A stretch of DNA of 52,990 bases, from assembly GCA_036006105.1 (NCBI GenBank), contig DASYPZ010000033.1, positions 1 through 52,990 of the forward strand, given 5' to 3'. This document shows positions 28,067 through 50,566 of this stretch, piece after piece. The position numbers were made by a program, and so were the translations under genes. The notes beneath the pieces are model-generated. The model was not told where the DNA came from, did not search any database, and was given only the letters and a program-made list of their open reading frames with translations. The first letter of the stretch is position 1; each line of letters begins with the position of its first letter. This DNA comes from Gemmatimonadales bacterium (GTDB lineage: Bacteria > Gemmatimonadota > Gemmatimonadetes > Gemmatimonadales > GWC2-71-9).

Positions 28067-28633
28067 ATGGGCATCATCGCAAGCGATATGCGGCGCGGAA
28101 TGGCCATCATGTTCAATGGCGAGCCCTGCCGGGTCCTCGAGTTCCATCACCACACGCCGGGGAACCTCCGGGCCATGGTGCAGGCCAAGCTCCGGAAACT
28201 GCGGACCGGAACCCAGCTGGAACACCGGTTCCGTTCCACCGACACGGTGGAAATCGCGGCGCTGGAGACCCACGAACTGGACTTCATGTACAAGGCGGGC
28301 GAGACCTACCACTTCATGAATGCCGAGAATTACGACCAGCTCGAAGTGGATGAGGAGACCCTGGGCGAGACGGCCAAGTGGATGGCCGAGGGCATGCGGA
28401 TCATTGCCGAATTCTACGAGGGGCGGCCGATCGGCATTCAGATGCCCAGCAGCCTCACCCTGGAGGTGGCCGACACCACGCCCGTGATGAAGACGGCGAC
28501 CAAGACCGCGTCCACCAAGCCGGCCCGTCTCAGCAACGGGGTCACGGTCAACGTGCCGGAGTTCATCCAGACCGGCGAGCGCATCCGGGTGAATCCCGAG
28601 ACCGGCGAATACCTGGACCGCGCCAAGGACTAG
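28067..28633 (+). CDS. efp: translation elongation factor P
   Basis: Aligns without gaps to E. coli EF-P across domain I and the rest (NGEP..., FRSTD, YHFMN.E.YDQ, KPA.LSNG..V.VP.F...GE.I.V....GEY..R). Confidence 0.95.
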   Translation: MGIIASDMRRGMAIMFNGEPCRVLEFHHHTPGNLRAMVQAKLRKLRTGTQLEHRFRSTDTVEIAALETHELDFMYKAGETYHFMNAENYDQLEVDEETLGETAKWMAEGMRIIAEFYEGRPIGIQMPSSLTLEVADTTPVMKTATKTASTKPARLSNGVTVNVPEFIQTGERIRVNPETGEYLDRAKD

Positions 28634-28640
28634 GCGCCGC

Positions 28641-29848: not shown

Positions 29849-30556
29849 ATGCGCGCAGCATCCGTTACCCCGCTCCTGCTGGTCCTGTCGGCCGTCAGCG
29901 CACCGCTGGCCGCCCAACGGCGGGAGCTCGCGGTCATCGCCGGCGGCAATTACTCGAGCGCGTCCGGCGGACGGATCGACCACGCCGAAGCCCACCTGGG
30001 CTTCCAGGGCGGCCTGAGTCTTCGCCTGCCGCGCAGCCCGATGCTGTCATTCCAGATCGATTTCCTGCTGGTCCAGCGACGTTTCTTTGCCGCCCGCGCC
30101 CCGAGTACGCTGCCTTCCTCGCAGGTGGGACCCCGGTCCGACGCGCCCAATCTCCTGTTTGCCCAGGTCCCGCTGCTCCTCCGCTTTCAGAAGGGGTACA
30201 GCACCGAACGGCCGATACGCCCCTACTTCGTGGCGGGCCCGTTCTTCGCTTTCCGGCTCCATTGCCGGCGCACCCTGACCGAGGCCAGCGGAGGCGTGAG
30301 CCATCCCGACTGCAGCGTCGCCCCGGTCGATCGCCCGGTCAGCACCGATCCGTTCTTTCCCGCGCTCTTCGAGGACCTCGACGTCGGCGTGCTGGGCGAA
30401 GTGGGTGTCCAGATCAAGCGGTTCTCGCTCGGACTCCGGGGCGAGAAGAGCATCCGGAACCTCGTCGATCAGGGATCCCTGCCGACATCCCCACTGGACC
30501 GCTCCAAGCTCTGGAGCGCCTCGATTTCGGTCGGTTACCTCGTCCGGGTTCTCTAA
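29849..30556 (+). CDS. outer-membrane beta-barrel protein (porin-family/OmpW-like, hypothetical)
   Basis: Signal peptide ...APLAAQ. Alternating amphipathic strands. C-terminus ISVGYLVRVL. No specific family recognised. Confidence 0.55.
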   Translation: MRAASVTPLLLVLSAVSAPLAAQRRELAVIAGGNYSSASGGRIDHAEAHLGFQGGLSLRLPRSPMLSFQIDFLLVQRRFFAARAPSTLPSSQVGPRSDAPNLLFAQVPLLLRFQKGYSTERPIRPYFVAGPFFAFRLHCRRTLTEASGGVSHPDCSVAPVDRPVSTDPFFPALFEDLDVGVLGEVGVQIKRFSLGLRGEKSIRNLVDQGSLPTSPLDRSKLWSASISVGYLVRVL

Positions 30557-30719
30557 GGAGGTCGGCCGCCTGCCCCTCGGCGGTCCGGCCGGAGGAAGAT
30601 ACCGCCCGGACAGCCGGTCCGGGTCCGCAGCGATCCCCCTCGCCCATTCGTAGGTCGTGACGGGGCGCGGACCGCCGGAAACATCCCCCGCGTGGTCCGC
30701 GTCGGTTCTATAGGCTCCC

Positions 30720-33014
30720 ATGGAACGAACGCTCGACGCCATCCTCACCTTTCTCCTCAAATACCCGCCGCGGCTGTACCAGCGGGGCGACTTGTCGCTG
30801 GCGCCGAGTTTTCCTCCCCGGCTGATCGCGATCGCCCTCGGCGTTGCGCTGGTTCTGCTGGTCCTGACCCTCCGCCGGGTGCGAACGCCGGCACCCATCA
30901 GGGACCGGCTGGTGCTCGGCGGGCTCCGGGCGGCGTTGTTCGGGCTGCTGGGGTTCTGCCTGTTGCGACCGGTCCTGTTGCTGTCGAGCGCGGTACCGCA
31001 GCGCAACGTGCTGGGCATCCTGCTGGACGATTCGCGCAGCATGCGCCTCACCGACATCGATGGCGGATCGCGGCTCGACGCGGTGCGGCGAGTGTTCGGC
31101 GATTCGGCCGCGATCACCGCCCGGCTGAGCGACCGGTTCGTGCTCCGGTTCTTCCGCTTTGCCGCGGATGCCGGACCGCTCTCCGGCGCCACGGCGCTCA
31201 AGGGCTCGGGGACCCGTACCGATCTCGCGGCCGCGCTCGATGCCGCGCGGCAGGAGCTGGGTGGGGTTCCCCTGGCCGGGCTGGTGGTGGTGAGCGATGG
31301 GGCCGACAACGTCGGGACCGATCTGACCGCGCCGCTCCTGGCCCTCAAGGGGCGACGAGTGCCGGTGTACACCGTGGGAGTCGGGCAGGAACGCTTCGCG
31401 CGCGACCTGGCCATCGAGCGGGTGTCGCTGCCGTCGAGTGCGCTGGCCGGTGCCGGAGTGCTGGCCGAGGTGGTGCTTCGGGTCCGGGGACTGCGCGGAC
31501 AGAGTGTGACCGTCACCGCCGAGGACGAGGGCCGGGTCGTGGCCCAGCGCGACGTACCGCTGCCCGACGCCGGCGACGTCGCGGTGACGCGGCTCTCTCT
31601 CCCGCCGCTTCCGGCGGGATCCCGGCGTCTCACCTTCAGGGTGCGCCCCGCTCCCGACGAAATCGTCACCGAAAACAACGAGCTCAGAACGGTGCTCCGG
31701 GTCCGTCCCGGTCCGGAGCGGGTGCTCTATCTCGAGGGCGAGCCCCGCCCCGAGTTCGCGTTTCTGCGTCGGGCCGTCTCGGCGGACAGCGCGCTCCAGG
31801 TCGTTGGACTGCTGCAGAGCGCGAAGGGAAAATTTCTCCGGCTCGGTGTCCAGGACAGCATCGAGCTGGCGGGCGGCTTTCCGACCCGGCGCGAGGATCT
31901 GTTCCGTTACCGCGCCCTCATCCTCGGGAGCATGCCGGCCTCCTTCTTTACCGGAGACCAGCTGCGGATGCTGGCCGACTTCGTGAGCCGGCGGGGCGGA
32001 GGACTGATCGTGCTGGGAGGCCGCGAGTCGCTGGTCGAAGGAGGCTTCGCCGGCACGCCGCTGGCGGAAGTGCTGCCGGTCGGCCTCGACGCGATGATAC
32101 CGGCCGGCGCGGGCGCTCCCGCCACCGAGCTCTCCGTCCGGGTGACTCCTCCGGGACTGGTCCATCCGGCGCTGCAACTGGGGAGCACCGAAACCGCCGG
32201 TGCCCGCTGGGATTCCCTCCCGCCGCTGACGTCGGTGAACCATTTCGGATCCCTCAAGCCCGGCGCCACCGCACTCCTGGTGGGTCGGCCCAGCGGGGGA
32301 GGACCCGAAGTCCCGGTCCTGGCGGTTCAGCGATTCGGCAAGGGGACCGTCGCGCTGGTCGGAGTCCAGGATACCTGGCTCTGGAAGATGAGTGCGAGCA
32401 TTCCGCTGGAGGATCAGACCCATGCGATGCTCTGGAAGCAACTGATCCGATGGTCGCTGGCCGGGGTGCCGGATCGGGTGGAGGTGGTCGCCTCGCCCAG
32501 CCGGGTCGGCCCGGGCGAGGCCGTGGTGCTGAACGCGCGGGTCTCCGATGAAGCGTATCTCGAATCCAACGATGCGGTCGTGGTGGCCAAGGTGACCTCG
32601 CCCCTGGGCCGGACCCAGGAAGTGCCGCTCACCTGGACCCTCAAGGAAGACGGCGCCTATCAGGGGCGGTTCGTTACCGAAGAGGAAGGGATGTATCTGG
32701 TGGAAGCGGAGGCACGCCGGGGCGCCGACACCATCCGCGCCGCGCCAGCCGCCCTCCTGGCGGACAACCACGGCGCCGACGTGGAGCAGGCGGAGCTGCG
32801 CTCCCCCCTCCTCAAACGCATCGCCAAGGAAACCGGCGGGCGCTACTACCCGCTGGCCGACGCCGCTCGGCTCACCGATGACGTCGAATTCACCGAGAGT
32901 GGAGTGACGGTCCGGGAATCCCGCGATCTCTGGGACATGCCGGCGGTGTTTCTCCTTCTCGTCCTATTGCTCGGAACCGAATGGGGCTATCGTCGCTGGC
33001 GGGGGCTCGCATGA
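30720..33014 (+). CDS. membrane-anchored VWA (MIDAS) protein with a class-I glutamine-amidotransferase-like domain and a C-terminal TM anchor
   Basis: Two N-terminal TM helices. MIDAS residues LLDDSRSM, GTRTD and VSDGADN. GATase1-like block (VLYLEGEPRPEF...RALILGS...GGGLIVLGG). Terminal hydrophobic helix. Confidence 0.8.
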   Translation: MERTLDAILTFLLKYPPRLYQRGDLSLAPSFPPRLIAIALGVALVLLVLTLRRVRTPAPIRDRLVLGGLRAALFGLLGFCLLRPVLLLSSAVPQRNVLGILLDDSRSMRLTDIDGGSRLDAVRRVFGDSAAITARLSDRFVLRFFRFAADAGPLSGATALKGSGTRTDLAAALDAARQELGGVPLAGLVVVSDGADNVGTDLTAPLLALKGRRVPVYTVGVGQERFARDLAIERVSLPSSALAGAGVLAEVVLRVRGLRGQSVTVTAEDEGRVVAQRDVPLPDAGDVAVTRLSLPPLPAGSRRLTFRVRPAPDEIVTENNELRTVLRVRPGPERVLYLEGEPRPEFAFLRRAVSADSALQVVGLLQSAKGKFLRLGVQDSIELAGGFPTRREDLFRYRALILGSMPASFFTGDQLRMLADFVSRRGGGLIVLGGRESLVEGGFAGTPLAEVLPVGLDAMIPAGAGAPATELSVRVTPPGLVHPALQLGSTETAGARWDSLPPLTSVNHFGSLKPGATALLVGRPSGGGPEVPVLAVQRFGKGTVALVGVQDTWLWKMSASIPLEDQTHAMLWKQLIRWSLAGVPDRVEVVASPSRVGPGEAVVLNARVSDEAYLESNDAVVVAKVTSPLGRTQEVPLTWTLKEDGAYQGRFVTEEEGMYLVEAEARRGADTIRAAPAALLADNHGADVEQAELRSPLLKRIAKETGGRYYPLADAARLTDDVEFTESGVTVRESRDLWDMPAVFLLLVLLLGTEWGYRRWRGLA

Positions 33015-33997
33015 GACGGTCAGGCTTTGCCCTGGTGCTGGCGGCGCTCGTGCCGGCCGCCCGGCAATCCGCGCCGGGGAGCACCCATGTCCTGCTGATC
33101 ACGGGACTTTCCGGTGAGCCCCGATTCGCGGCCGCGTTCCACAGCGAGGCGGCCTCGATCTACGATGCGGCCAAGGCGCGCTGGGTTCGCTCCGATTCGA
33201 GTCTGATGTATCTGGCCGAGGACCCGGCCCAGGATCCGGCGCGGATCACGGGACGGGCAACCCGGGATGGTGTGGCCACGGCGATCGCCAGGCTCGCCGC
33301 CCGCTCGACGCCCGGCGACATCCTGTTGATCGTCCTCATCGGACATGGCAGTGGGCAGGGCCCCGACTCGCGGCTCAATCTTCCCGGTCCCGACGCCACC
33401 GCCGCCGACTTCGCCACCTGGCTCGCGCCGCTCGCTGGGAGAATCGTGGTCCTGGTGAATGCCTCGAGCGCCAGCGGCGATTTCGTCCCGGTGCTTTCCG
33501 CCAAGGAGCGGGTGATCGTGACGGCCACCAAGAGCGCCATGGAGCGGAACGAGACCACGTTCGGAGAGTACTTCGCCAGGGCCCTCGCGTCCGAATCCGC
33601 CGACGCCGATCGCGATGGCCGGGTGACGCTGCTCGAGGCGTTCGACTATGCTCGCCGGGAGGTGGCCCGGGGATACGAGACCAGGAACCTGCTCGCGACC
33701 GAACACGCGCTGCTGGATGACGACGGCGACGGCAAGGGGAGTACCGCGCCGGGTGGCGCGCAGGGAGACGGGGCGGTCGCGCGCACGGTCGGGTTCGGAA
33801 TCACGGCACCGTCCACCGATCCGCGGGTCGCCGCGCTGGTCCTGGAGCGCCGCGCGCTCGAGGGCCAGGTCGATGCGCTCCGGCGACGCAAGGCCGGCAT
33901 GGACTCCACGGCGTACGAGCGGGAGCTGGAGCGGTTGCTGCTGGAGATCGCCACCAAGTCCGCGGCCATTCGTGCTGCGACCGGGCAGAAGCCATGA
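33011..33997 (+). CDS. secreted caspase/legumain-fold (clan CD, C13-like) protein lacking any cysteine, with a C-terminal coiled coil
   Basis: Signal peptide. The HVLLITG...DILLIVLIGHGSG...IVVLVNASSASG...DRDGRVTLLEAFDYA pattern is typical of clan CD. There is no Cys in the whole ORF. ATGA overlaps on both sides. Confidence 0.6.
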   Translation: MRRSGFALVLAALVPAARQSAPGSTHVLLITGLSGEPRFAAAFHSEAASIYDAAKARWVRSDSSLMYLAEDPAQDPARITGRATRDGVATAIARLAARSTPGDILLIVLIGHGSGQGPDSRLNLPGPDATAADFATWLAPLAGRIVVLVNASSASGDFVPVLSAKERVIVTATKSAMERNETTFGEYFARALASESADADRDGRVTLLEAFDYARREVARGYETRNLLATEHALLDDDGDGKGSTAPGGAQGDGAVARTVGFGITAPSTDPRVAALVLERRALEGQVDALRRRKAGMDSTAYERELERLLLEIATKSAAIRAATGQKP

Positions 33998-36483
33998 CCC
34001 GGCTCATGGCATGGGCGCCGCTGGTGCTGCTGGGATTCGTCGCCGGCCGGGTGCAGGACGACGGCCTGGCCGCGCGCCGTCGGGTTCGAGCGCTCGCCGA
34101 ATCGGGACATCTGTCCGAGGCGGAGGATGCCGCCCGCCGCGGCGGCGCGGCGGTTCTCGTGCCGCTCGGCGAGGTCCTGGCCCTCACCGGCCGGCTGGCC
34201 GCCGCCGACTCGGTTTTCCGGATCGCAGTGGAACGGAGCGTACCCGACTGGCGGAACGCCGAGGCCTCCCGTGCCGAGCTCGCGGCGCGCCGGGGTAGCG
34301 CCGGCGCGGCGCGGCAGCTGGCCCTGAGCCTGGCCACGGCCTATGAACGCGACGGTGCCCGCTGGACCGCGGACGACCGGGTGGCGGCCGGGCGCGCCTA
34401 CGTGGTGCTGGGCCGGGACGATGCGCTGGGACTCCGGAACGCGCTCCGCGCCTTCGACGCCGCCGTCGCAGCCGATTCGAGCCTGGTCGAAGCGCGCATC
34501 CGTCTCGGCGATCTCTTTCTCGACAAATACAACGCGCCCGATGCCAGGACCAGCTACACCGAAGCGCTCCGACTGTCTCCCCGGCAACCGCGCGCGCTGC
34601 TCGGGATGGCGCGGGTCCTCGCGTTCCAGGGCAGCCCCGATGCCACCCAGGGCGTACGCGCCAGCCTGAGTGCCAACCCGTCGCTGGCGCCGGCGCAGGC
34701 CCTGCTGGCCCAGCTGCATCTGGACGCGGAGCAGTACGACTCCGCGGCGGCCTCCGCGGGCCGCGCGCTGGCGGCCGACTCCTCCGCCGCCGATGCGTGG
34801 GCCATGCTCGGCGCCACCGCGTGGCTGCGGGACGACTCCGCCGGGTTTGCAAGGGCCCGGGCCGGCGCCGCGCGGGTGAACCCGCGGCCGTCCGATTTTT
34901 ACAGCGAAGTGGCGGAAGCGGTGGCGCGGCACCGCCGCTATGCCGAGGCGGAACAATTCGGCCGCGAGGCAGTGGCACTGGACTCGCTGTCCTCGCGGGC
35001 CCTCGGCGGACTGGGCATCAATGAGCTCCGGCTGGGCCACATCGAAGCCGGGAGCGCGCACCTGACCCGCGCCTTCGCGCGGGACCCGTTCCACATCTGG
35101 TACAAGAACACGCTCGACCTGCTGGATGAGATGAAGACCTTCCGCACCGTGGCGACCCGGCGCTTCCGGATCGTCGCGCCGGCCGCCGAGGCGGATCTGC
35201 TGGCGCTCTATCTGGGTCCGCTGCTCGAGGAGGCCTACGATTCCCTGGCCGCCCGCTACGAGTATCGTCCTCCGACGCCGATCCGAATCGAGCTGTACCG
35301 TCGCCACGCCGATTTCTCGGTCCGCACCGTGGGGCTGGCGGGGCTGGGCGCGCTGGGCGTGAGCTTCGGAACCGTGCTGGTGATGGACGCGCCGTCGGCA
35401 CGCAGTCCCGGCGAGTTCAACTGGGGGAGCACCGCGTGGCACGAGCTCACCCACACCTTTACCCTCGGTCGCTCGGCCCACCGGGTGCCCCGCTGGTTCT
35501 CCGAGGGTCTGTCGGTGCTGGAAGAGCGCCGGGCCCGTCCGGCCTGGGGCGCCGGGCCGACTCCGGAATTCCTGGCCGCGTTCAAGGCCGGCCGCCTGCT
35601 TCCGCTGACCCGGCTGAACGACGGATTCGTGCGGCCCAGCTATCCCGCCGAGCTGGGGTTCAGCTACTACCAGGCCTCGCTGGTGTGCGAGATGATCGAG
35701 GGCCGCTGGGGCCGCGCGGCGCTGGTGAGCATGCTGGCAGGATACCGCGACGGACTCGATACCCGAGGCGTATTCACCGGGGTGCTGCACCAGACTCCGG
35801 AGGCGCTGGCCGTGCTGTTCGATGCCTGGCTGCGGCAGAAGTTTGCCGGACCCCTGACGCATGTGGCGGCCTGGGACGGGAAGGGACCGGCCACCGGAGA
35901 ATTCGTCACCGCGCTCGCGTCGGCCGAGACGCTGGTGGAGCAGAAGCATCCCGCCGAGGCCCGCGCCGCGTTCGAGCGCGCCGAGGCCATGTTTCCGATG
36001 TACATCGGACCCGATGCCCCCGCGCTGGGCCTGGCGCGTCTCGCATTGGAGCGCAACGACAAGCCCGCCGCCGTCGCGGCGCTGGCCCGATTCACCGCCC
36101 TCGACGAATCGGCCCTGGAGGCGAATCGCCGCGAGGCCTCCCTCCGTCAGGATCTGGGGGACTGGGCCGGCGCGGCCGCGGCGCTCCAGCGCACCCTGTG
36201 GATCTTTCCGTACGATCCCGCGGCGCATGCCCGGCTCGCCGAAGTGGCCGAGCGGCTCTCCGATCCGGCCCGAGCGCTCCGTGAGCGCCGCGCCGTGGTC
36301 GCGCTGGCACCGGCCGACCTCCTGGAGGCGCGTTACCAGCTGGCCCGGGCGCTGGCCCTGGCCGGAGACTCCGCCGCGGCGCGGCACGAGGTCCTGCAGG
36401 TGCTGGAGGGCGCGCCCGGATTCGAAAAGGCCCAGACGCTCCTGCTGGATCTCCGGAAGAAGCCGGAAGGGAGGGTGCCGTGA
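33994..36483 (+). CDS. TPR-repeat protein with an embedded peptidase-MA-like zinc metalloprotease domain
   Basis: Signal/anchor at the N-terminus. TPR-like Ala/Leu/Arg-rich helices flank WHELTHTF...RWFSEGLSVLEE (HExxH plus a downstream Glu ligand). Confidence 0.8.
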   Translation: MTRLMAWAPLVLLGFVAGRVQDDGLAARRRVRALAESGHLSEAEDAARRGGAAVLVPLGEVLALTGRLAAADSVFRIAVERSVPDWRNAEASRAELAARRGSAGAARQLALSLATAYERDGARWTADDRVAAGRAYVVLGRDDALGLRNALRAFDAAVAADSSLVEARIRLGDLFLDKYNAPDARTSYTEALRLSPRQPRALLGMARVLAFQGSPDATQGVRASLSANPSLAPAQALLAQLHLDAEQYDSAAASAGRALAADSSAADAWAMLGATAWLRDDSAGFARARAGAARVNPRPSDFYSEVAEAVARHRRYAEAEQFGREAVALDSLSSRALGGLGINELRLGHIEAGSAHLTRAFARDPFHIWYKNTLDLLDEMKTFRTVATRRFRIVAPAAEADLLALYLGPLLEEAYDSLAARYEYRPPTPIRIELYRRHADFSVRTVGLAGLGALGVSFGTVLVMDAPSARSPGEFNWGSTAWHELTHTFTLGRSAHRVPRWFSEGLSVLEERRARPAWGAGPTPEFLAAFKAGRLLPLTRLNDGFVRPSYPAELGFSYYQASLVCEMIEGRWGRAALVSMLAGYRDGLDTRGVFTGVLHQTPEALAVLFDAWLRQKFAGPLTHVAAWDGKGPATGEFVTALASAETLVEQKHPAEARAAFERAEAMFPMYIGPDAPALGLARLALERNDKPAAVAALARFTALDESALEANRREASLRQDLGDWAGAAAALQRTLWIFPYDPAAHARLAEVAERLSDPARALRERRAVVALAPADLLEARYQLARALALAGDSAAARHEVLQVLEGAPGFEKAQTLLLDLRKKPEGRVP

Positions 36484-37244
36484 AGCGTTACGTTCTGGCC
36501 GCCGCGGTCCTGCTGCTGATCGCGGTTCCCCTGCTGGTCCGCGCCCAGCGGGGCTGCAACGGATGCGAGGCGCTGGTGGCGCCGCCCAATCCGAAATACG
36601 ACGGGCGGTTCACCTACGCGCGCATCAAGTTCACCATTCTGGGCGGGGATTTCGGCGGCCGGTTCCAGGACATCAAGTGGGGGCACGACTATCCCCAGGC
36701 CGATCATCACTTCCCCAAGATCATCCAGGAGCTGACCACGGTCGAGACCCGCACCGAGGAGAGCGTCATCCTCGCGCTGGACGATCCCGAGCTGTTCAAG
36801 TTCCCGTTCGCGTACATGTGCGAGCCGGGGTACTGGCTCCCCAGCGACAAGGAAGTGGCGGGCCTCCGGAATTACCTGCTCAAGGGCGGATTCCTCATCA
36901 TCGACGACTTCGTCGGTCCGCACTGGAACAATTTCGAGACCCAGATGCGGAAGGTGCTGCCCGGGGCGCGCATGATCCCGCTCACCGCCGACATGCCGAT
37001 CTTCGATTCGTTCTACCGGATCCCGTCCCTGGACTTCGATCATCCCTATTACGGGGTGAGGGCCCAGTTCTACGGGATCTTCGAGGACAACGATCCCACC
37101 AAGCGGATGATGGCGATCGTCAACTACGACTACGACGTCAGCGAATACTGGGAATTCTCCGATACCGGCCTGTTTCCCATCGACCTCTCGAACGAGGCCT
37201 ACAAGCTCGGCGTCAATTACCTGATCTACGCTTTTTCCCATTGA
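36480..37244 (+). CDS. DUF4159 domain-containing secreted protein
   Basis: Signal peptide. Family-typical blocks: FTYARIKF, W.HDYP.AD, DDPELFKFPFAYM.EPG, YLLKGGFLIIDDF. Confidence 0.85.
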   Translation: MKRYVLAAAVLLLIAVPLLVRAQRGCNGCEALVAPPNPKYDGRFTYARIKFTILGGDFGGRFQDIKWGHDYPQADHHFPKIIQELTTVETRTEESVILALDDPELFKFPFAYMCEPGYWLPSDKEVAGLRNYLLKGGFLIIDDFVGPHWNNFETQMRKVLPGARMIPLTADMPIFDSFYRIPSLDFDHPYYGVRAQFYGIFEDNDPTKRMMAIVNYDYDVSEYWEFSDTGLFPIDLSNEAYKLGVNYLIYAFSH

Positions 37245-37260
37245 TCGAAAGGACCGGAGC

Positions 37261-38295
<1,035 letters not shown>

Positions 38296-38300
38296 CGACG

Positions 38301-39197
38301 ATGACCGCGCCGTCCGGCTTCCTCGACCCCGCCCTCCTCGCCCGCATCGGGGATCTCTCGCTGCTGGCGCGCAACGTGGTCGATGGCTTCATGCACGGGC
38401 TGCACCGGTCCCGCCGGGTCGGATTGTCGCTCGATTTTGCCGAGCACCGCTCCTATCAGCCGGGCGACGACATTCGCCGGATCGACTGGCGGGTCTATGG
38501 CCGCACCGACCGGTATTACGTCAAGGAATACGAGGCCGACACCAACGCCGCGGTGACGTTCGCGCTGGATGCCTCGGGCTCGATGGATTTCGGGAGCGGC
38601 GCGGTCACCAAGTTCGATTACGGCCGGTTCCTGGTGGCGTCGCTCGCCTGGCTGTCGCAGCACCAGGGAGACCGGGTCGGGCTGGTGACCTTCTCCGGGG
38701 ATCTGCTCGAGGTGGTGCCGCCCTCGACCCGGCATCTCCGCCTGATCCTCCACACCCTGGGTCGGGCGAGTGCGCGCGGCGCGGGACGGCTTACGCCGGT
38801 CCTGGAGCGCGCCGCGCGGCTGTCCAGCCGCGCCGGGATCGTGGTGATCGTGTCGGACTGCTATGAAGATCCCGCCCAGCTGCAGCTCGGCATCGGCTCA
38901 CTCCGGGTCCGGGGTCATGACGTGATTCTCTTTCACGTCCTGGATCCGGCCGAACGGGATCTCCCCGGTGAAGGAGCCGCGACGTTCGAAGACGCGGAAA
39001 CCGGCGAGCGCCTGCCGCTCCGCCCGGAGGAGCTGCGGGAGCGCTACCTGCACGAGATGAGCGCCCACCGCGCCGAGCTCTCCCGCCGCCTGGGCGCGGA
39101 TCGAGCGGACTATGTGCCACTCACCACCGACCAGCCACTCGATGGGGCGCTCTATGCCTATCTCGAGCACCGTCTCGCGGCGAGCCGGGTGCGCTGA
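38301..39197 (+). CDS. DUF58 domain-containing protein (VWA-like, MoxR partner)
   Basis: HRS...G.S.DFAEHR.Y.PGDD.RRIDWRV..RTD..YVKEYE motif, then MIDAS LDASGSM. Confidence 0.9.
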   Translation: MTAPSGFLDPALLARIGDLSLLARNVVDGFMHGLHRSRRVGLSLDFAEHRSYQPGDDIRRIDWRVYGRTDRYYVKEYEADTNAAVTFALDASGSMDFGSGAVTKFDYGRFLVASLAWLSQHQGDRVGLVTFSGDLLEVVPPSTRHLRLILHTLGRASARGAGRLTPVLERAARLSSRAGIVVIVSDCYEDPAQLQLGIGSLRVRGHDVILFHVLDPAERDLPGEGAATFEDAETGERLPLRPEELRERYLHEMSAHRAELSRRLGADRADYVPLTTDQPLDGALYAYLEHRLAASRVR

Positions 39198-41263
39198 TGG
39201 GAGCCCTGGGATTCCTGGTGCCGGCGTTCCTGGCGGGATTGGCGGCGCTCGCGCTGCCGGTCCTGTTTCATCTCCGGCACCGGGAACGGGACCGGGCCCA
39301 TCGATTTCCCTCGCTGATGTTCCTGCGCCGTATTCCGATTCGCACCGCCCAGCGCCGCCGGATTACCGATTGGCTGCTGTTGCTGCTGCGGGCGGGGGTC
39401 GTGGCCCTGCTGGTGGCGGCCTTTGCCCGTCCGTTCCTGGGCCGCTCCACTCCGGCGGCATCCGCGGTGCCCATCCGCACGGTGGTGCTCCTGCTGGATC
39501 GTTCGCTCAGCATGGGTCACGGCGCCGTGTGGCCCGCCGCGCTGGATTCCTCGCGGCGGATCGTGGCGTCACTCGGGGCGGGTGCCCGGGTGGCGGTGGT
39601 GCTGTTCGATGAAGAGGCCCAGGTGGCGCAGGCCTTCACGCAGGACCACGGGCTGGCCACCGCGGCGATCAATGCCGCCCGCCCGTCGGCCCGGGGGACT
39701 CGCTACGCCGCGGCGCTTCGCGCCGCGCGGCGTCTGGTGGCCGATGCGCACGCCGGCGCCGCCGAGGTTTTTGTGGTGACCGACCTTCAGCGAACCGGCC
39801 TCGATGGCCTCGCGGGGCTCGAGCTGCCCCCCGAGCTCGATGTCCGCGCGGTGTCGGTGGTCCCGGCCCGCCGGCCCGACGCCGCGGTCGCCGGCGCGGA
39901 GGTCCAGCGGGTCTCCGACGGGGACCGCAGCCGGCTCCTGGTCTCGGCCCGGATCACCCTGCGAGATCGGCCCGCTCCGGTCCGCGGCCGGCTCTCGCTG
40001 GCGGTGAACGGCCGGGTTGCGACCACTCGTGATCTCACCCTTCCCGCGGATGGCGCCCTCTCGGTCGCCTTCGACCCGGTGCCGCTTCCCCGCGGCCGCG
40101 CCACCGCCGCCGTCTTCCTGGAACCCGATGCGCTGCCCGCCAACGACTCGCTCCGCTTCGTGGTCCCGGCGGAGGAGGCGCTTCGCGTGCTGCTGGTCGT
40201 CCCCGCGGACGCCACCCCGGAAGAGACGCTCTTCCTGGAGCGCGCGTTAGGAATCGGACGCGCGCCTTCGTTGACCGTGGAGCGCCGCCGCGCCGGCGCG
40301 CTCGATGCCCGTGCGCTGCAGGGTGCGGCGGTGGTGCTGCTGTTCGACAGCCCGATCCCTTCCGGCGCGGCGTTCGATGGCTGGGTCAGACGTGGAGGCG
40401 GCCTCATCGTGGCGGCGGGGCGCCGGCTGTCGACCCGACCCACCGGTTCCCCGCTCCTCCCCGGCACCATTCGCGGGGCGGTGGAGCGGATGAACGATCG
40501 CGGTGGTGCCTTCGGCGAAGTGTCGCTCGACCATCCGATTTTCTCGCCGTTCCGGGGCGGCGGCGCCGCGGCGCTGGGTGCCGCGCGATTCCTCCGCTAT
40601 GCGCGAGTCAGCGCCGATTCCGGTGCCGAGGTCCTGGCCCGATTCGACGATGGCAATCCCGCCCTGGTCGAGCGGGCCGCCGGCGCCGGACGGACGCTGC
40701 TGCTCGCGGCGCCGCTCGACGCCGTCTCGGGAGACTTTCCCCTCCAGCCGGCGTTTCTGCCGTTTCTTCGCCGGCTGGCGCTCTACGCGGTCGGCTACGA
40801 GCCGCCGCCGCTCTGGCACACGACCGGCGAGACCGTCTTCACGCCGCGATCGCTGGGGAATCCGGTGGTCGCGACGCCGACTGGCGCGCTGCGGCGGCCG
40901 GCCGGCGACTCGGGAGCCCGCGCAATGGCGCTCCCGGAAGCCGGCTTCTACGATGTATATGATGGACGGGCCGCCGGGGAGCCCGCGATGGTGCTGGCCG
41001 CCAACCCCCCGGCCGCGGAATCCGACCTGACCGTGTCCGATCCGCGGGAGCTGCTGCTGGGTGTCCATCGGAGTGATTCGGTGCGGGTCGAACCGGCCGG
41101 ACCCGAAGCGCCGGCCCAGCGTGAGGGACGCCAGCGCCTCTGGCGTCTCCTGCTGACCGGCGCCGCGCTGCTGCTGTTGGTCGAGACCGTCCTGGCGAAT
41201 CGTGGCTGGCGCGCCACTTCCGCTGTCGTCCTGCCGGCGCCGCCCGAAAGGAGCACATCATGA
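39197..41263 (+). CDS. BatA-N-terminal (double-TM) domain VWA protein
   Basis: N-terminus FLAGLAALALPVLFHLR...R..FPSLMFLR (aerotolerance-regulator N-terminal motif). MIDAS LLLDRSLSM, GTRY and VVTDLQ. TGATG overlap upstream. Confidence 0.88.
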   Translation: MGALGFLVPAFLAGLAALALPVLFHLRHRERDRAHRFPSLMFLRRIPIRTAQRRRITDWLLLLLRAGVVALLVAAFARPFLGRSTPAASAVPIRTVVLLLDRSLSMGHGAVWPAALDSSRRIVASLGAGARVAVVLFDEEAQVAQAFTQDHGLATAAINAARPSARGTRYAAALRAARRLVADAHAGAAEVFVVTDLQRTGLDGLAGLELPPELDVRAVSVVPARRPDAAVAGAEVQRVSDGDRSRLLVSARITLRDRPAPVRGRLSLAVNGRVATTRDLTLPADGALSVAFDPVPLPRGRATAAVFLEPDALPANDSLRFVVPAEEALRVLLVVPADATPEETLFLERALGIGRAPSLTVERRRAGALDARALQGAAVVLLFDSPIPSGAAFDGWVRRGGGLIVAAGRRLSTRPTGSPLLPGTIRGAVERMNDRGGAFGEVSLDHPIFSPFRGGGAAALGAARFLRYARVSADSGAEVLARFDDGNPALVERAAGAGRTLLLAAPLDAVSGDFPLQPAFLPFLRRLALYAVGYEPPPLWHTTGETVFTPRSLGNPVVATPTGALRRPAGDSGARAMALPEAGFYDVYDGRAAGEPAMVLAANPPAAESDLTVSDPRELLLGVHRSDSVRVEPAGPEAPAQREGRQRLWRLLLTGAALLLLVETVLANRGWRATSAVVLPAPPERSTS

Positions 41264-44200
41264 GTCCCTACGCCGATCGGAACGAAGCCGAGCGCGAGCT
41301 CGCGATGGCGGTGCGCCGGCTCCGGCGGGGATGGCGCCTCCGCGTGCTGGCGGAAGGCGCGGCTCGCGTCGCGGTGGCCGCGCTGCTGGCCCTGCTGGCG
41401 GGCGCGGCGCTGGCCGGCATTCTCGGAGCGGGCTCCGCGGCGGTAGTCACCATGCGGGTGCTGGGCTACCTGCTCATCGCGGCGGCGGTGCTGCGCTACC
41501 TGCTGATTCCGGGTCTCCGCCGTGCCGATGATGCGAAGCTCGCGCTCTATGTCGAAGAGCGTGCTCCGGAGCTCCGTCAGACGCTGCTCAGCGCGGTCCA
41601 CGAGCTTCAGGTCGCTCCGGACGCGCGCCCGTCTCCGGCGCTCTCGGCGCGCGTGATGCAGCAGGCGCTGGCGGAGGTGCGCCGGATCGAAGCCGGCCCC
41701 GGCCTGGAACGCTCCAGGGTGGGTCGCGCCGGCGCGCTGCTGGCCGCGGTGGGCGTGGCGGCGGCGCTGCTGCTGGCCGTGGGTCCCGCGGTCCTCAAGG
41801 ACGCCGCCAAGGTCCTCTTCATTCCCTGGTCCGAGGCGGAGGCCGCGCCGGTATTCGCGGTGACCGTCCTGCCGGGCGACGCCCAGGTGCCCAAGGGCGG
41901 CGCCGTGGAGCTCAAGGCCTCACTCCGCGGATTTGCTGCATTGTCCGCCGAGCTGGTGCTGAAGACGGATACCGCTACCGAATGGGTCCGGATTCCGATG
42001 CTGCGAGATTCCGCCGCCGCGGGATTCTCCAGCCGGCTCTTCGACCTGACCCGCACGACCGAATACTACGTCGAGGCCGACGGCGTGCGATCGCGCGCCT
42101 TCCATCTCACCGTGGTGGACTTGCCGGCAGTCGAGCGGCTCTCGCTCGAGCTGCGATTCCCGGCGTACACCGGGCTCCCCCCGGAGCGGATCGAGAGTGG
42201 CGGCGACGTGGCCGCGGTTCGCGGAACCACGGTCACCGTGCGCGCCCGCATCACCAAGCCGGTGAAGGGCGGCTCCATCCGGCTGGACGACCGGACCACC
42301 GTGCCGCTTCGTGCCGATTCGTCGGGACGCCTGGTCGGCTCCTTCCGGGTGTCCCGCAATGGGTTCTATCGCGTCGACCTCATCGCCGCGGACGGGACGC
42401 CCGTGCCGGGCACGCTGCAGTATGTCATCGAGGCGCTCGACGATCACGGACCGACGGTGCGCATCGAGCAGCCGGGCCGGGATACCAAGGTCACTTCGGT
42501 GGAAGAGGTGGCCGTCGCCGTGCACGCCTCGGACGACTACGGCGTGGAGGCGCTGGAGCTGCGCTACCGCGTGAACGGGGGCGCCGAGCAGCGGATCGCC
42601 CTGACCGATTCGGCCGGTCACGCCACTCAGGAAACCCGGGCGGCCCACACGCTCTTCCTCGAAGAACTCGGCCTCAAACCGGGAGACCTGGTGTCCTACT
42701 TTGCCGCCGCCAGGGACGGCGCCGGCAACTCCTCCTCGAGCGACATCTACTTTCTCGAGGTTCGGCCGTTTGGACGCGACTACAAGCAGGCGGAAGCGGG
42801 CGGTGGTGGCGGGGGCGGCGGAGAGCAGAGCCCGGAAGGGCTTTCGGCACGGCAACGGGAAATCGTGGCCGGAACCTTCAACTGGCTCCGCGACAGCGCC
42901 CGGACGGCCGAGCGCGAGCGCCGCGAGAATCTCACCACGCTGGCCATTTCCCAGGGACAGCTCAAGACCGATGTGGGCGAGCTGGTGCGCCGCCTGGTCG
43001 AACGCAACATTCTCGCCGCCGACACCACCTTCAAGCTGATTCACGCCGCGCTCGACTCGGCCGGCAAGGAAATGCAGGCCGCCGAGGAGCGGCTTGGGCT
43101 GGGAGACCCCGAGGGCTCATTGCCGCGAGAACAGCGCGCCCTCCAGCTGGTCCAGCGCGCCGAAGCCGCGTACCGCGAGGTACAGGTTCAGCTCGGCCAA
43201 CAGGGCGGCGGCGGCGGCGGGGGCGCGAAGCAGAGCGCCGAAGACTTGGCCGACCTGTTCGACCTGGAAACCGACAAGCTGCAGAATCAGTACGAGTCGG
43301 TGCAGCAGGAACAGCAGCAGAGCGCGCAACAGGAGCTGGATGAGACCGCCGAGCGGCTCAAACGGCTGGCCAGCCGGCAGCAACAGGAAAACGAGCGGAT
43401 GCAGCGGATGGCTGATGCGCTCAAGGACCGCATGGGACAGCAAGGCGGTGGCGGCGGGGGCGGGGGACAGCAGCGCCAGCTCGCCAAGGAAGCCGAGGAG
43501 GAAGCCCACCGGCTGGAGCGCCTGGCGCGGGAGAAGAACTCTCCCGAGCTGGCGCAGGCGGCCCGCCGGATGCAGGAGGCCGCCGATGCGATGAAGCGGG
43601 CGGCCGCCGATTCGCCCAATGCGCCGTCCCAGGGTGGCACCGCGCTGGATCGGCTCAAGGGCGCCAGCAAGGATCTGGAGAACGCCCGCACCGAAGGACA
43701 GAGCGAGAGCGTGCGGGACCTGCAACGCCGGGCCGGAGACCTCGGCAATCGTCAGCGCGAGATCGCCGGAGGCGTCAAGGAGCTGGCCGGCGCAAGTGGA
43801 GCCGACCGGGCGGAGAAGATGCGCCGCCTGGGCGAGCGCAAGGATGGCCTCGCCTCGGACGTCGAGCGGCTCCAGGCGGACGCCGAGCGCCTCGCCCGGG
43901 AAACCCGGCGGGATCAACCGGGTGCGGCGGGAAAGATCGACAATGCGGCCACCACTATCCGGGACAGCCGGATCCACGACAAGGTGCTCTATTCCAAGGA
44001 CGTGATGCGAACCGGCTCTCCCGAGCTGTCCGACCGGATCGAGGGTCAGATCACCGAGAATCTGGACGACGTGGCCGGGAAGCTGCGCCAGGCGGCCGGC
44101 GCGCTGACCGAATCCGAGGACGCGCGGCGCGAGCGAGCGCTGGACCGGGCCCGTGAGCTGGTTCAGGGTCTCGAGTCTCTCAAGGATCGGATCGGGGCAA

Positions 44201-44739
44201 AGCAGGGGCAGGGCGGGCAGAGTGGGAAGGAGGGTCAGGAAGGACAGCAGAACGGGGCGGGCAAGCAGGGCCAGGGGCAAGGTCAGGGGCAAGGGCAAGG
44301 GCAAGGCCAACAACCGGGAGGCCAGCAGAATGGTCAGGGCGGCGGGCAGAGGCCCGGCGGCACTCCGGGTGGTGATCCGATCTCCGGCGGCGATGCCCGC
44401 CAGTTCGCGCGGGAGTTTCGGCTCCGCCGAGAGGCCGCCGAGAGTCTGAGCCGCGAGCTGGCCGGGAAGAACCTGGACGTCGCTGATCTCGAGAAGGCCA
44501 TTGGTGATCTCAAGCGGCTCGAATCGGGTCGTGCCTTCGGCGATCCGAAGCACCTGGAGCAGCTGCAGCAGGATGTCATCGAAGGATTGAAGAACTGGGA
44601 ATTCCGTCTCTGGCGGACGCTGGGGCAGACCGGCGGCGACCGTCCCGCGATGGGCGCGCCGGCGGCGGCCCCGCCCGAGTACCGCACGCTGGTCGAGGAA
44701 TACTACCGGTCCCTGGCGAGGAAGAAGCCGCCCCAATGA
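41260..44739 (+). CDS. large membrane-anchored coiled-coil/low-complexity protein (DUF4175-like, tentative)
   Basis: N-terminal TM helices, a beta-rich middle region, then about 600 aa rich in Glu/Gln/Arg/Ala heptads. This region is interrupted by three poly-Gly tracts and a (GQ)n tract. ATGA overlap with the upstream gene. Confidence 0.75.
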   Translation: MSPYADRNEAERELAMAVRRLRRGWRLRVLAEGAARVAVAALLALLAGAALAGILGAGSAAVVTMRVLGYLLIAAAVLRYLLIPGLRRADDAKLALYVEERAPELRQTLLSAVHELQVAPDARPSPALSARVMQQALAEVRRIEAGPGLERSRVGRAGALLAAVGVAAALLLAVGPAVLKDAAKVLFIPWSEAEAAPVFAVTVLPGDAQVPKGGAVELKASLRGFAALSAELVLKTDTATEWVRIPMLRDSAAAGFSSRLFDLTRTTEYYVEADGVRSRAFHLTVVDLPAVERLSLELRFPAYTGLPPERIESGGDVAAVRGTTVTVRARITKPVKGGSIRLDDRTTVPLRADSSGRLVGSFRVSRNGFYRVDLIAADGTPVPGTLQYVIEALDDHGPTVRIEQPGRDTKVTSVEEVAVAVHASDDYGVEALELRYRVNGGAEQRIALTDSAGHATQETRAAHTLFLEELGLKPGDLVSYFAAARDGAGNSSSSDIYFLEVRPFGRDYKQAEAGGGGGGGGEQSPEGLSARQREIVAGTFNWLRDSARTAERERRENLTTLAISQGQLKTDVGELVRRLVERNILAADTTFKLIHAALDSAGKEMQAAEERLGLGDPEGSLPREQRALQLVQRAEAAYREVQVQLGQQGGGGGGGAKQSAEDLADLFDLETDKLQNQYESVQQEQQQSAQQELDETAERLKRLASRQQQENERMQRMADALKDRMGQQGGGGGGGGQQRQLAKEAEEEAHRLERLAREKNSPELAQAARRMQEAADAMKRAAADSPNAPSQGGTALDRLKGASKDLENARTEGQSESVRDLQRRAGDLGNRQREIAGGVKELAGASGADRAEKMRRLGERKDGLASDVERLQADAERLARETRRDQPGAAGKIDNAATTIRDSRIHDKVLYSKDVMRTGSPELSDRIEGQITENLDDVAGKLRQAAGALTESEDARRERALDRARELVQGLESLKDRIGAKQGQGGQSGKEGQEGQQNGAGKQGQGQGQGQGQGQGQQPGGQQNGQGGGQRPGGTPGGDPISGGDARQFAREFRLRREAAESLSRELAGKNLDVADLEKAIGDLKRLESGRAFGDPKHLEQLQQDVIEGLKNWEFRLWRTLGQTGGDRPAMGAPAAAPPEYRTLVEEYYRSLARKKPPQ
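44269..44310 (+). repeat. in-frame hexanucleotide (GGN-CAR)x7 microsatellite encoding (GQ)7
   Basis: ggccaggggcaaggtcaggggcaagggcaagggcaaggccaa read directly. It lies inside CDS 41260-44739. Confidence 0.9.
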
Positions 44740-44743: not shown

Positions 44744-45160
44744 ATGACCGATCTTCACATCCTGATTGGTACCCTGGGGTTCGAGGCCCGGTTCGAGCGG
44801 GCGCGCGCGCCACTCAGCTGCGCCGCGTTCGAAGCACTCCTGCCCTTCGAACATCCGGCCATCCAGGCGCGCTGGAGCGGCCAGGCGGCCTTCGTGCCGC
44901 TTGGCCTCGCCGCGCTGAGCCTGCCCGCCGAAAATGCTACCCGCTTCCCGGCCCCCGGCGAGCTGCTGCTGTATCCCGGCGGCATCAGCGAAGTGGAGGT
45001 GCTGATCCCCTACGGTCCCACCGCGTTCGCCAGCAAGGCGGGTCCGCTGGCCGGGAACCACTTCCTGACCATCGTCTCGGGGAACGAACAGCTGGAGGAG
45101 CTGGGCCGCAGGGTCTTGTGGGAGGGAGCCCAACAGGTGCGCATTCGGCGCGCGAACTGA
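44744..45160 (+). CDS. DUF3830-family (cyclophilin-like fold) protein
   Basis: The blocks LLYPGGISEVE...YG...FASK.G.LAGNHFLTIV and VLWEGAQ match my recollection of this family. Starts 4 nt after the upstream stop. Confidence 0.6.
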   Translation: MTDLHILIGTLGFEARFERARAPLSCAAFEALLPFEHPAIQARWSGQAAFVPLGLAALSLPAENATRFPAPGELLLYPGGISEVEVLIPYGPTAFASKAGPLAGNHFLTIVSGNEQLEELGRRVLWEGAQQVRIRRAN

Positions 45161-45180
45161 CGCATTCCCGGAAAGCTTCC

Positions 45181-45543
45181 ATGACCATCACCCGTATTGG
45201 AATCACCGATCCCGTCAACGGCATGCCGGTCATGAGCCGCGCCGTCGTGCGAGGCGACACCGTGTATCTCTGCGGGGTCGTCCCCGATCCCGCCGGCGAC
45301 ATCGCCACCCAGACCCGGCAGGTCCTCGAGAAGATCGACCAGATGCTGACCGGTGCGGGGAGCGACAAGTCCAGGCTCCTGACCGCCCAGATCTGGCTCG
45401 CCGACATGGGTCATTTCGCGGCGATGAACGCGGTGTGGAATGCCTGGGTGGATCCGAAGAATCCTCCGGTGCGGGCGTGCGTGCGCGCGGATCTCTACCG
45501 CCCTGAAGTGCTGGTCGAAATCATGGTCACCGCGGCCCGATAA
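45181..45543 (+). CDS. RidA/YjgF-family reactive-intermediate deaminase
   Basis: Length is about 120 aa. Motifs: G..VYL.G....D......Q...VL..ID..L...G.....LL...IWL.D, and R.CV.A.L.....VEI. Confidence 0.85.
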   Translation: MTITRIGITDPVNGMPVMSRAVVRGDTVYLCGVVPDPAGDIATQTRQVLEKIDQMLTGAGSDKSRLLTAQIWLADMGHFAAMNAVWNAWVDPKNPPVRACVRADLYRPEVLVEIMVTAAR

Positions 45544-45592: not shown

Positions 45593-46480
45593 ATGACCGC
45601 TGAAATCCGCGGCGCGCGCCGCGCCATGCCACCAATGCTCCTGGCCCTTTGCCTGGCGGCCGCTCTCTCTGCTCCGGTCCACGCCCAGGATGAGCCATCC
45701 GGCCCCCGGGTGGACAGCACTCGGCAGGGTCAGCGCTTCGATACCGACGGCAATCATGCCGCCGCGCGCGCGATCTTTCTCCAGCTCATCGAGACCGCTC
45801 CCGATCCGGCCGCGAAGGCAGCGGCCCAGCGCCGGATGGCGATTTCCTACGGATTCGAAGGCAACTGCGCCAAGGCCGTCGGCTATGAGGAGCTGGTCCT
45901 CGGGTACTGGGCGACCCGCGAATCGGCCGAACCGCAGAACGCCTTCTTCCAGGAGGGCGAGACGGCGAACGAGGCGGCTCGGCTCTGTATCGACGCCGGA
46001 GACCTCGCAACCGCCGAGCGAATGTACCGGCGGGGAAATGAAATGGCACTCAAGGAGCCGGAGCCGAAAACCCATCCGCGAAGCCTGTGGGACTACCGGC
46101 TCGCCCACGCGATGGCGCGTCTCGCCGCTCGCCGGGGCAACGCCGCGGAAGCGCAGCGTCAGGTGGACCAGGCCCGCAAGATCCTGGCGTCCGATTCCGC
46201 CATGGCCGCGGGCCAGGCCCGCTACCTGCCGTATCTGGTCGGCTACGTGGCGCTGTACACCAATGATTTCACGACCGCAGAGACCGAGCTGACCAAGGCT
46301 ACCGAGCTCAACAAGAACGATCCTTTCATGCAGGTACTTCTCGCGATGACCTACGAAAAGACGGGACGGAAGGATTTGGCGATGGAGCGGTACCGCAAGG
46401 CGTATGACCTGGCCACGGGGCATACCCCGCCCGCGGCCTTCGCCCGGCCTTATGCGGCCAGGAAGCTGGGTGCGCCATGA
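45593..46480 (+). CDS. secreted TPR-like repeat protein
   Basis: Signal peptide ...LSAPVHAQ. Helical repeats rich in Ala/Tyr/Leu. Later Met codons are possible alternative starts. Confidence 0.6.
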   Translation: MTAEIRGARRAMPPMLLALCLAAALSAPVHAQDEPSGPRVDSTRQGQRFDTDGNHAAARAIFLQLIETAPDPAAKAAAQRRMAISYGFEGNCAKAVGYEELVLGYWATRESAEPQNAFFQEGETANEAARLCIDAGDLATAERMYRRGNEMALKEPEPKTHPRSLWDYRLAHAMARLAARRGNAAEAQRQVDQARKILASDSAMAAGQARYLPYLVGYVALYTNDFTTAETELTKATELNKNDPFMQVLLAMTYEKTGRKDLAMERYRKAYDLATGHTPPAAFARPYAARKLGAP

Positions 46481-50515: not shown

Positions 50516-50566
50516 TCGGAAAAGATAGCGAACCCCTGCGTCGATCCTGCCCCCGTCCAAGAACAA

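Follow-up and report, generated by a model that had tools for sequence, protein, structure and literature searches.

A conserved eight-gene MoxR-DUF58-BatA cluster of soil bacteria as a candidate relative of the Bat and Cmd envelope systems

We analysed a stretch of DNA from a Gemmatimonadales bacterium (GCA_036006105.1, contig DASYPZ010000033.1, forward strand; 52,990 nt, GC content ~69%; hereafter the window) and found that a predicted operon of eight genes, g1-g8 (30720-44739), is conserved among soil bacteria that belong to at least two phyla, Gemmatimonadota and Acidobacteriota. Gemmatimonadota are abundant but little-studied in soil. The cluster encodes a MoxR ATPase, a DUF58 protein and a BatA-type membrane protein together with an unusual set of membrane and exported proteins, and the locus is best read from its gene content as an elaborated relative of the Bat and Cmd envelope systems, with a distinct conserved architecture in these two phyla.

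Results

Gene organization

All eight genes lie on the + strand, with a third-position GC content of 0.83-0.89, as in real genes. The cluster and the spacer before it are as follows.

Spacer, 30557-30719, + strand: 163 nt from the end of an OMP_b-brl_2 gene (30556) to g1; presumed promoter region
g1, 30720-33014, + strand: 764 aa, VWA/GATase1_like membrane protein
g2, 33011-33997, + strand: 328 aa, predicted exported legumain/caspase-fold protein
g3, 33994-36483, + strand: 829 aa, TPR-flanked Peptidase_MA_2 gluzincin
g4, 36480-37244, + strand: 254 aa, predicted exported single-domain DUF4159 protein
g5, 37261-38295, + strand: 344 aa, MoxR-type AAA+ ATPase
g6, 38301-39197, + strand: 298 aa, DUF58 protein
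g7, 39197-41263, + strand: 688 aa, BatA_N-VWA membrane protein
g8, 41260-44739, + strand: 1159 aa, DUF4175 protein with three predicted transmembrane (TM) segments

ATGA overlaps join g1 to g2 (33011/33014), g2 to g3 (33994/33997) and g7 to g8 (41260/41263), the g3/g4 overlap is GTGA (36480/36483) and the g6/g7 overlap is TGATG (39195-39199), while gaps of 16 nt and 5 nt separate g4 from g5 and g5 from g6. An earlier note on this DNA, made from the letters and their reading frames, had described eight same-strand genes with these junctions and the 163-nt spacer, and its coordinates were confirmed. Independent gene calling on an ENA contig with an identical MoxR protein also reproduced the lengths of g4-g8 (254, 344, 298, 688 and 1159 aa). 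Consensus scans found no promoter-like or terminator-like sites above chance within the cluster or at its edges, and a sigma-70 scan of the spacer (30557-30719) found no promoter. The folding of a GC-rich hairpin upstream of g1 (30560-30590) was no better than that of shuffled sequence (z = -0.32), and Rfam gave no RNA families in the window.

Conservation and linkage of the genes

One genome per species was scanned with a DUF4159 alignment, 10-kb flanks were taken, and the open reading frames of all loci (given L numbers) were searched with the window proteins; a second scan, of metagenomes, was seeded with a distant DUF4159 subfamily. Since all loci were fetched via DUF4159, g4 owes part of its constancy to the sampling, which does not apply to the constancy of g1 or the frequencies of g2 and g3. 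The order g1-g2-g3-g4-g5-g6-g7-g8 was kept in every sufficiently long Gemmatimonadota locus of the genome scan. In Vicinamibacterales and other Acidobacteriota, the cluster has all eight genes, or lacks g3, or lacks both g2 and g3, and reduced, expanded and permuted versions of the cluster were found in Acidobacteriota and on metagenome contigs. A permuted seven-gene form lacking g2, in the order g3-DUF4159-MoxR-DUF58-BatA-g8-g1, occurs on metagenome contigs of 52-64% GC (L134, L148, L150, L155 and L170), and for L170 this order was confirmed by precomputed Pfam labels. When MoxR proteins of variant loci were looked up by exact sequence in protein clusters, only L090 received a taxon, Vicinamibacterales.

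Of 47 loci with g1 and g5-g8, 40 have g2 and 35 have g3, and each of these two genes occurs without the other. On the other hand, g1 is present with g5-g8 in 47/47 loci covering both ends, even if it has moved beyond g8. By this gene content, the constant core is g1, g4 and g5-g8, with g2 and g3 as frequent but dispensable accessories. The linkage survives rearrangement and phylum boundaries, which argues strongly against a fortuitous neighbourhood; the proposal of the earlier note that the genes form one unit rather than a chance assembly is thus supported. Moreover, the functional motifs described below (Walker A/B, the MIDAS of g1, g6 and g7, and HExxH...E) do not vary among the 54-74 orthologs compared for each, and are taken to be under selection.

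In some loci an extra DUF4159 paralog precedes g1 or follows g4 or g8. A second DUF4159 subfamily, with the motifs FYFTRA and GGFLVVDDF, is encoded directly upstream of g1 in many genomes (L039, L043, L059, L066, L068, L070, L078, L089-L091, L096, L118 and others), and this upstream paralog is the distant subfamily that seeded the metagenome scan. A third copy is sometimes found 3' of g8; the window has one copy only, g4. Searching with a profile built from a diverse DUF4159 alignment again retrieved mostly Gemmatimonadota and Vicinamibacterales, and the range of taxa grew no wider. Among cultured bacteria, Gemmatirosa kalamazoonensis has the complete cluster on a 1.1-Mb replicon (NZ_CP007129.1, ~735.5-750.6 kb), and a genome of Gemmatimonas phototrophica has a close match to it. 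A tblastn search of the PLSDB plasmids with g4, g7 and g8 found only Gemmatirosa and one weak Corynebacterium DUF4159 match. In one further locus (L001, ERZ25039538 contig_51607), the cluster has fused or fragmented gene calls, for example TPR and MoxR as one 1132-aa product, which suggests that this long contig carries indel errors.

Predicted cytoplasmic proteins

The profile annotation that the earlier note had suggested as a check gave Pfam/TIGRFAM matches for MoxR, DUF58, BatA_N, DUF4159, DUF4175 and TPR, and a weak Peptidase_C13 match for g2. The g5 protein matches AAA_3 (3.6e-61) and AAA_lid_2 (2.3e-15), with a far weaker secondary match to bpMoxR (6.9e-10). Its Walker A motif (GVPGLAKT, 37441-37464) and Walker B motif (DE, 37642-37647) are invariant in 74 orthologs. 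The g6 protein matches DUF58 (2.9e-49) and VWA_2 (1.1e-8) and carries a MIDAS motif (for metal ion-dependent adhesion site), DASGS (38568-38582), of which D-x-S-x-S is invariant in 66 orthologs. Hydropathy gave neither a TM segment nor a signal peptide for g5 and no TM segment for g6, and both proteins are predicted to be cytoplasmic.

Predicted membrane proteins

The g7 protein matches BatA (1.1e-17), TIGR02226 (8.6e-21) and VWA_2 (5.5e-14). Its order is a BatA_N double-TM hairpin (39206-39433), a VWA domain with the MIDAS motif DRSLS (39497-39511; invariant in 54 orthologs), a beta-sandwich, a GATase-like domain and a C-terminal TM segment; the TM segments were placed by hydropathy at residues 6-24, 59-77 and 648-666. 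A strongly basic loop joins TM1 to TM2, so the bulk of the protein from the VWA to the GATase-like domain is predicted to be periplasmic and the C-terminal tail cytoplasmic. Hydropathy and charge distribution predict the same topology for g1. These predictions agree with the BatA-type protein BB0173 of Borrelia, whose topology, determined experimentally, has three TM helices with the VWA domain in the periplasm (PMC5700661).

In an AlphaFold2 (AF2) model of g1 (predicted local distance difference test, pLDDT, 84.6), two N-terminal TM segments are followed by a VWA-like alpha/beta domain, a CARDB-like beta-sandwich, a GATase1_like alpha/beta domain, an Ig-like sandwich and a C-terminal TM segment. 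The D-D-S-x-S of its MIDAS motif (DDSRS, 31026-31040) is invariant in 56 orthologs, and with g6 and g7 this brings the MIDAS proteins to the three that the earlier note had counted beside one MoxR protein. No Pfam match of g1 was above threshold and the BatA_N model was not matched, while PF07090 GATase1_like is present in many g1 orthologs. Thus, of the two BatA-type N-termini that had been proposed, that of g7 is recognised as such, whereas g1 has the two N-terminal TM segments only. The g1 and g7 profiles align with an hhalign probability of 99.1 (E 8e-19) over 508 columns, collinearly from TM2 on, and by this comparison g1 is a divergent paralog of g7.

The useful matches from Foldseek with the whole g1 protein were a CARDB domain and 7oci chain G, the others being multi-domain beta-sandwich proteins at low TM-score (GH2, complement C3, PorU), and a sequence search of PDB gave a marginal match to 3soz. 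The part of g1 comprising alpha/beta domain, sandwich and TM segment resembles 7oci chain G from yeast oligosaccharyltransferase (Foldseek probability 1.00, target TM-score 0.35). This chain is presumably Wbp1/OST48, with a GIFT-type GATase-like fold that we take to occur also in GldG and IFT52. The likeness is a possible clue to a scaffold role of this g1 domain.

The g8 protein matches PF13779 DUF4175 (1.2e-14, 53.8 bits against a cut-off of 27.3), spanning only positions 193-385 of the 825 of the profile. Its TM segments (residues 37-55, 67-85 and 160-178, within 41368-41793) enclose a conserved loop of ~75 aa that is predicted to be cytoplasmic, as is the N-terminus. They are followed by a DUF4175/Ig-like region and then by a 650-aa helical region rich in Gln, Gly, Glu and Arg with heptad segments; 26 of its windows are heptad-like, where shuffled sequences average 0.5. 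Conservation is even over the whole length, and ~980 residues are predicted to lie outside the cytoplasm. The DUF4175 label of AdvA from Acinetobacter was considered as a source of function, but its match is at the TM-proximal N-terminus and that of g8 at profile positions 193-385, so no function was transferred. No cysteine is present in g2, g7 or g8. Sequence searches of PDB with g2, g3, g7 and g8 gave only TPR and VWA matches.

Predicted exported proteins

The g2, g3 and g4 proteins have N-terminal hydrophobic segments of the export type, resembling signal peptides. The AF2 model of g2 (pLDDT 90.9) has a legumain/GPI8/metacaspase-like domain and a C-terminal helical hairpin. The top 27 Foldseek matches in PDB are legumains or asparaginyl ligases, followed by GPI transamidase and metacaspases (E from 5e-8, probability 1.00, target-relative TM-score up to ~0.6), and the Peptidase_C13 match of 17.9 bits is under the Pfam cut-off of 22.8. 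With legumain and GPI8 (C13, clan CD), g2 shares the fold and a His-Gly motif after the equivalent strand; the histidine of its GHG (His112; 33341-33349) is invariant in 60/60 orthologs. On the other hand, a C-terminal helical hairpin stands in place of the LSAM prodomain, and the catalytic-Cys position, as assigned by strand order in the model and not by superposition, is Ser153 (SASG, 33467-33478). This position is Ser in 54 and Thr in 6 of the 60 close orthologs and Ser, Thr or Pro in distant ones, with Cys in 0 of ~77. Because of these replacements and the lack of any Cys in the protein, g2 is probably not a cysteine protease.

The g3 protein consists of a predicted signal peptide, a TPR array, a Peptidase_MA_2 core and a second TPR array, the arrays and the core being placed by Pfam. 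Its HELTH motif (35440-35454) is accompanied by the third-ligand Glu in WFSEG (35503-35505), and 62 orthologs all keep the H, E and H of the motif as well as the Glu of WxxEG. Against Peptidase_MA_2, the window copy reaches 22-25 bits and stays below the cut-off of 32.4, and 21/21 orthologous cores match the family (best 2.6e-21). Judged from its complete catalytic site, g3 is the one clearly catalytic component in prospect. The earlier note had counted two protease-fold proteins; the folds of both were recognised, the HExxH...E core in g3 and the legumain/caspase fold in g2, but only the former is expected to be a protease.

The g4 protein, with a hydrophobic N-terminal segment at residues 4-22, matches PF13709 DUF4159 (2e-45, 155.2 bits against a cut-off of 25.9) and has a relative in PDB, 4i66_A (9e-10, sequence search). 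DUF4159 is placed in the Pfam GATase clan on structural grounds alone, and among 16-49 DUF4159 sequences there is no invariant or near-invariant Cys or His and hence no Cys-His-Glu triad. Modules like class-I GATases are thus present as the earlier note proposed, but in three proteins (g1, g7 and g4) rather than two, on the basis of a fold relationship. We take them to be non-catalytic because of this clan placement and the lack of invariant Cys or His in DUF4159.

Discussion

Relation to Bat, Cmd and other MoxR systems

The resemblance of the MoxR-DUF58-BatA core to Bat operons, noted earlier, was borne out by the matches to AAA_3, DUF58 and BatA_N. The Bat operon was reportedly described in 1999. 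Like the Bat clusters of Bacteroides fragilis, Leptospira and Borrelia, the present locus has MoxR, DUF58 and BatA_N-VWA genes in canonical order, and TPR proteins are encoded in the cluster. There are also differences. Neither BatD (PF13584) nor SH3 (BatE) was among the Pfam matches of the eight proteins at E <= 0.01, so these two remain unrecognisable here, as the earlier note had it. The g1 and g7 proteins have ~700 aa with beta-sandwich and GATase-like domains, whereas the last TM of BB0173 is at residues 310-328. Moreover, DUF4159 and DUF4175 are constant here and the TPR protein is a metallopeptidase. Judged by these profile matches, the locus has the MoxR-DUF58 and BatA parts of a Bat operon and lacks its BatD and BatE.

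The cmd operon is said to comprise four genes, for MoxR, DUF58 and two transmembrane proteins. In Rhizobium leguminosarum, cmdA-cmdD (RL3499-RL3502) mutants are detergent-sensitive with defects in envelope integrity and cell shape, and a genetic interaction links cmdA-D to TtpA, a TPR protein of the periplasm; a counterpart operon is predicted in Brucella (bab1_1573-1576). Both operons combine a MoxR protein of the MRP subfamily, a DUF58 protein and membrane proteins, the comparison being made at MoxR and DUF58 only. The TPR link is genetic there, while here the operon itself includes the gene for a predicted periplasmic TPR protein (g3), which we regard as an analogy. As a difference, no DUF4159, legumain-fold or peptidase gene is reported for the cmd operon. 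In the literature searched, no paper treats DUF4159, DUF4175, BatA_N or GATase1_like together with MoxR or with regard to function, and it shows no function for the extended architecture, as the earlier note had believed; that statement has to be tempered in that the related cmdA-D core does have an envelope-integrity phenotype, which already points to envelope homeostasis.

With MoxR-VWA chaperone pairs such as RavA-ViaA, the locus shares intact Walker motifs beside a VWA-type partner with MIDAS (motifs invariant in 66-74 orthologs). CbbQ-CbbO and NorQ-NorD are presumably further pairs of this kind. For those pairs the client has been identified and is an enzyme, either soluble or in the membrane, whereas no enzyme client is linked here and the partners are mostly predicted to be periplasmic. 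Generally, MoxR proteins work with a VWA cofactor and mature specific complexes.

A possible mechanism

TM and charge predictions and the AF2 model of g1 agree with the layout across cytoplasm, inner membrane and periplasm that the earlier note envisaged, and we consider it very probable that the locus is one functional system with this layout. The best explanation overall is a multi-protein envelope system of the Bat/Cmd kind, which we regard as plausible although it falls slightly short of being probable. How such a system would work can be drawn tentatively, largely by analogy. In the manner of other MoxR-VWA pairs, a g5 hexamer would use ATP, while g6 would hold on to an acidic client residue through its MIDAS. 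The only cytoplasmic handles encoded in the locus would be, in g7, the conserved BatA_N loop (residues 25-58), in g1, a short loop, and in g8, the N-terminus (residues 1-36) and the 75-residue loop (residues 86-159); hence the motor would assemble or remodel an inner-membrane complex of g1, g7 and g8. On the other side of the membrane, a scaffold would be made up of the g1 and g7 MIDAS sites, the modules of the GATase-like and DUF4159 types, which would serve interaction and not catalysis, and the long helical g8; this scaffold would position the g3 metallopeptidase, with g2 as a non-catalytic partner, on cell-wall peptides or envelope proteins. The outcome would be the maintenance of envelope integrity, a direction taken because of the phenotypes of the cmdA-D mutants and the interaction with TtpA. 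We regard this chain, from the g5-g6 motor through the periplasmic scaffold to g3 action, as a tentative proposal, with fewer chances of being right than of being wrong.

A bolder version is a trans-envelope machine, in which MoxR-DUF58 would signal via the BatA_N and DUF4175 hairpins and the scaffold would gate g3 and the nucleophile-swapped g2, so that ATP would regulate proteolysis or ligation in the periplasm, in the service of homeostasis of the cell wall and outer membrane, as a distinct multi-phylum class. We think it a long shot. If true, it would be the first mechanism for the Bat/Cmd family.

Several points weigh against a Bat/Cmd-kind envelope system driven in this way. The large VWA ectodomains of g1 and g7 are predicted to be periplasmic, beyond direct reach of a cytoplasmic ATPase; the ATP-driven, metal-dependent assembly or remodelling machine of the earlier note, a reasonable extrapolation from MoxR/VWA precedents, was overstated in this respect. 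Signal peptides and topology were called by eye from hydropathy and positive-inside charge, with no dedicated predictor. TIGR02302 was not matched by g8, the architecture of which (two to three TM segments and a Gln/Gly-rich tail) resembles what we take to be the description of that family. Several DUF4159 paralogs are solitary, and a Longimicrobiales locus (L084, DASVCS010000059.1) has g1-g2-g3-g4-MoxR with no clear DUF58, BatA or DUF4175 gene beside them, reflecting either a split cluster or a damaged assembly. Finally, Bat mutants of Leptospira showed no phenotype in morphology, growth or oxidative stress, so that the phenotypes in this family are not uniform.

Alternative explanations

The locus might instead be concerned chiefly with periplasmic proteolytic maturation or sorting, g3 and a g2 with Ser or another nucleophile processing or ligating envelope proteins, with the VWA proteins as substrate receptors and MoxR as regulator. 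The active site of g3 is intact and invariant, g2 has its invariant His, a conserved S-A-S-G-D pocket and a high-confidence legumain fold with transpeptidase relatives, and the two genes are adjacent and translationally coupled. However, g2 and g3 are dispensable (missing from 7/47 and 12/47 loci) and each is found alone, the nucleophile position of g2 varies among Ser, Thr and Pro, and no cluster-linked substrate gene has a recognisable sorting signal. We therefore think this unlikely, but worth keeping in mind. The variable presence of g2 and g3 would also suit the idea that g1-g3 have a separate function and are merely co-promoted with the MoxR core, as would the Longimicrobiales locus with g1-g4 and MoxR and no obvious g6-g8. 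This is contradicted by g1, which is a paralog of g7 and keeps company with g5-g8 in 47/47 loci even when relocated past g8, and by g3, which still stands beside DUF4159 and MoxR in the permuted form; such a split is quite improbable.

A plain Bat aerotolerance operon, for periplasmic redox or oxidative-stress protection with lineage-specific decorations, would account for the canonical order of MoxR, DUF58 and BatA_N-VWA, and g1 could replace BatB and the TPR-bearing g3 BatC/BatE. It does not account for the unmatched BatD and SH3, the much larger g1 and g7, and the constancy of DUF4159 and DUF4175. Cultured Gemmatimonadota are aerobes, which also speaks against this role. The aerotolerance function itself was not confirmed in Leptospira, and we judge the explanation improbable. 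For Bat, a periplasmic complex has been proposed. A conflict or anti-phage system with a caspase-like effector, comparable to MoxR-VWA ternary systems, is suggested by the bpMoxR match of g5 (6.9e-10) and the presence of a caspase-fold protein. That match is, however, far below AAA_3 (3.6e-61), the caspase-fold g2 is a predicted secreted protein without the Cys, and PADLOC gave 0 matches for all eight proteins. The cluster is phylum-wide, with chromosomal synteny (DUF5916, EF-P, HGSNAT) across genomes with g2 only 63% identical, which is the behaviour of core genes. We thus rejected the defence reading, on the missing PADLOC match, the core-genome synteny and the secreted Cys-less g2, as very improbable.

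Implications for MoxR-DUF58-BatA clusters

MoxR-DUF58-BatA clusters are widespread in bacteria. The locus adds to them a fixed, apparently co-inherited parts list, namely the VWA/GATase-like pair, DUF4159, DUF4175 and, in most loci, a metallopeptidase and a legumain-fold pseudo-enzyme. It assigns a genomic context to three DUF families and offers concrete testable partners, one assayable enzyme (g3) and cultured hosts; the locus itself reveals no new principle.

Neighbouring genes

Flanking genes are not conserved with the cluster across genomes. In the window, the + strand continues after g8 with genes for a DUF3830 protein (44744-45160), which begins 4 nt past the g8 stop, a RidA/L-PSP protein (45118-45543, overlapping DUF3830), a TPR protein (45593-46480) and an amidohydrolase (46477-47901). 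A transcript may run past g8 into the DUF3830 gene, and all four genes may be co-transcribed with the cluster here. DUF3830 is outside the conserved cluster, and none of the DUF3830, RidA, TPR and amidohydrolase genes was found beside the cluster in other genomes. About 3 kb downstream of the cluster, on the - strand (47909-50566), is a gene for an 885-aa M1-family aminopeptidase (Peptidase_M1 and ERAP1_C), which is of the same HExxH...E class as the g3 core and has no synteny tie to the cluster.

Directly before the cluster, the OMP_b-brl_2 gene (29849-30556) has no counterpart found near the cluster in L001-L083. Further upstream (25050-29780) are genes for a DUF5916/CBM9 protein, EF-P and an HGSNAT-like acyltransferase, a synteny shared with another Gemmatimonadales locus (L002, 1-7539; g2 63% identical). 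The gene at 12131-14320 (- strand) encodes a Ser/Thr protein kinase of 729 aa with Sel1 repeats fused to it, and a protein kinase gene is similarly placed upstream of the cluster in L002. What looks like a pathway for polar-lipid head groups lies at 3617-10121 (+ strand), a run of genes for a HAD hydrolase, a MobA-like nucleotidyltransferase, an unassigned 287-aa protein, a CDP-alcohol phosphatidyltransferase, a GFO/IDH/MocA oxidoreductase and an LPG_synthase_TM protein.

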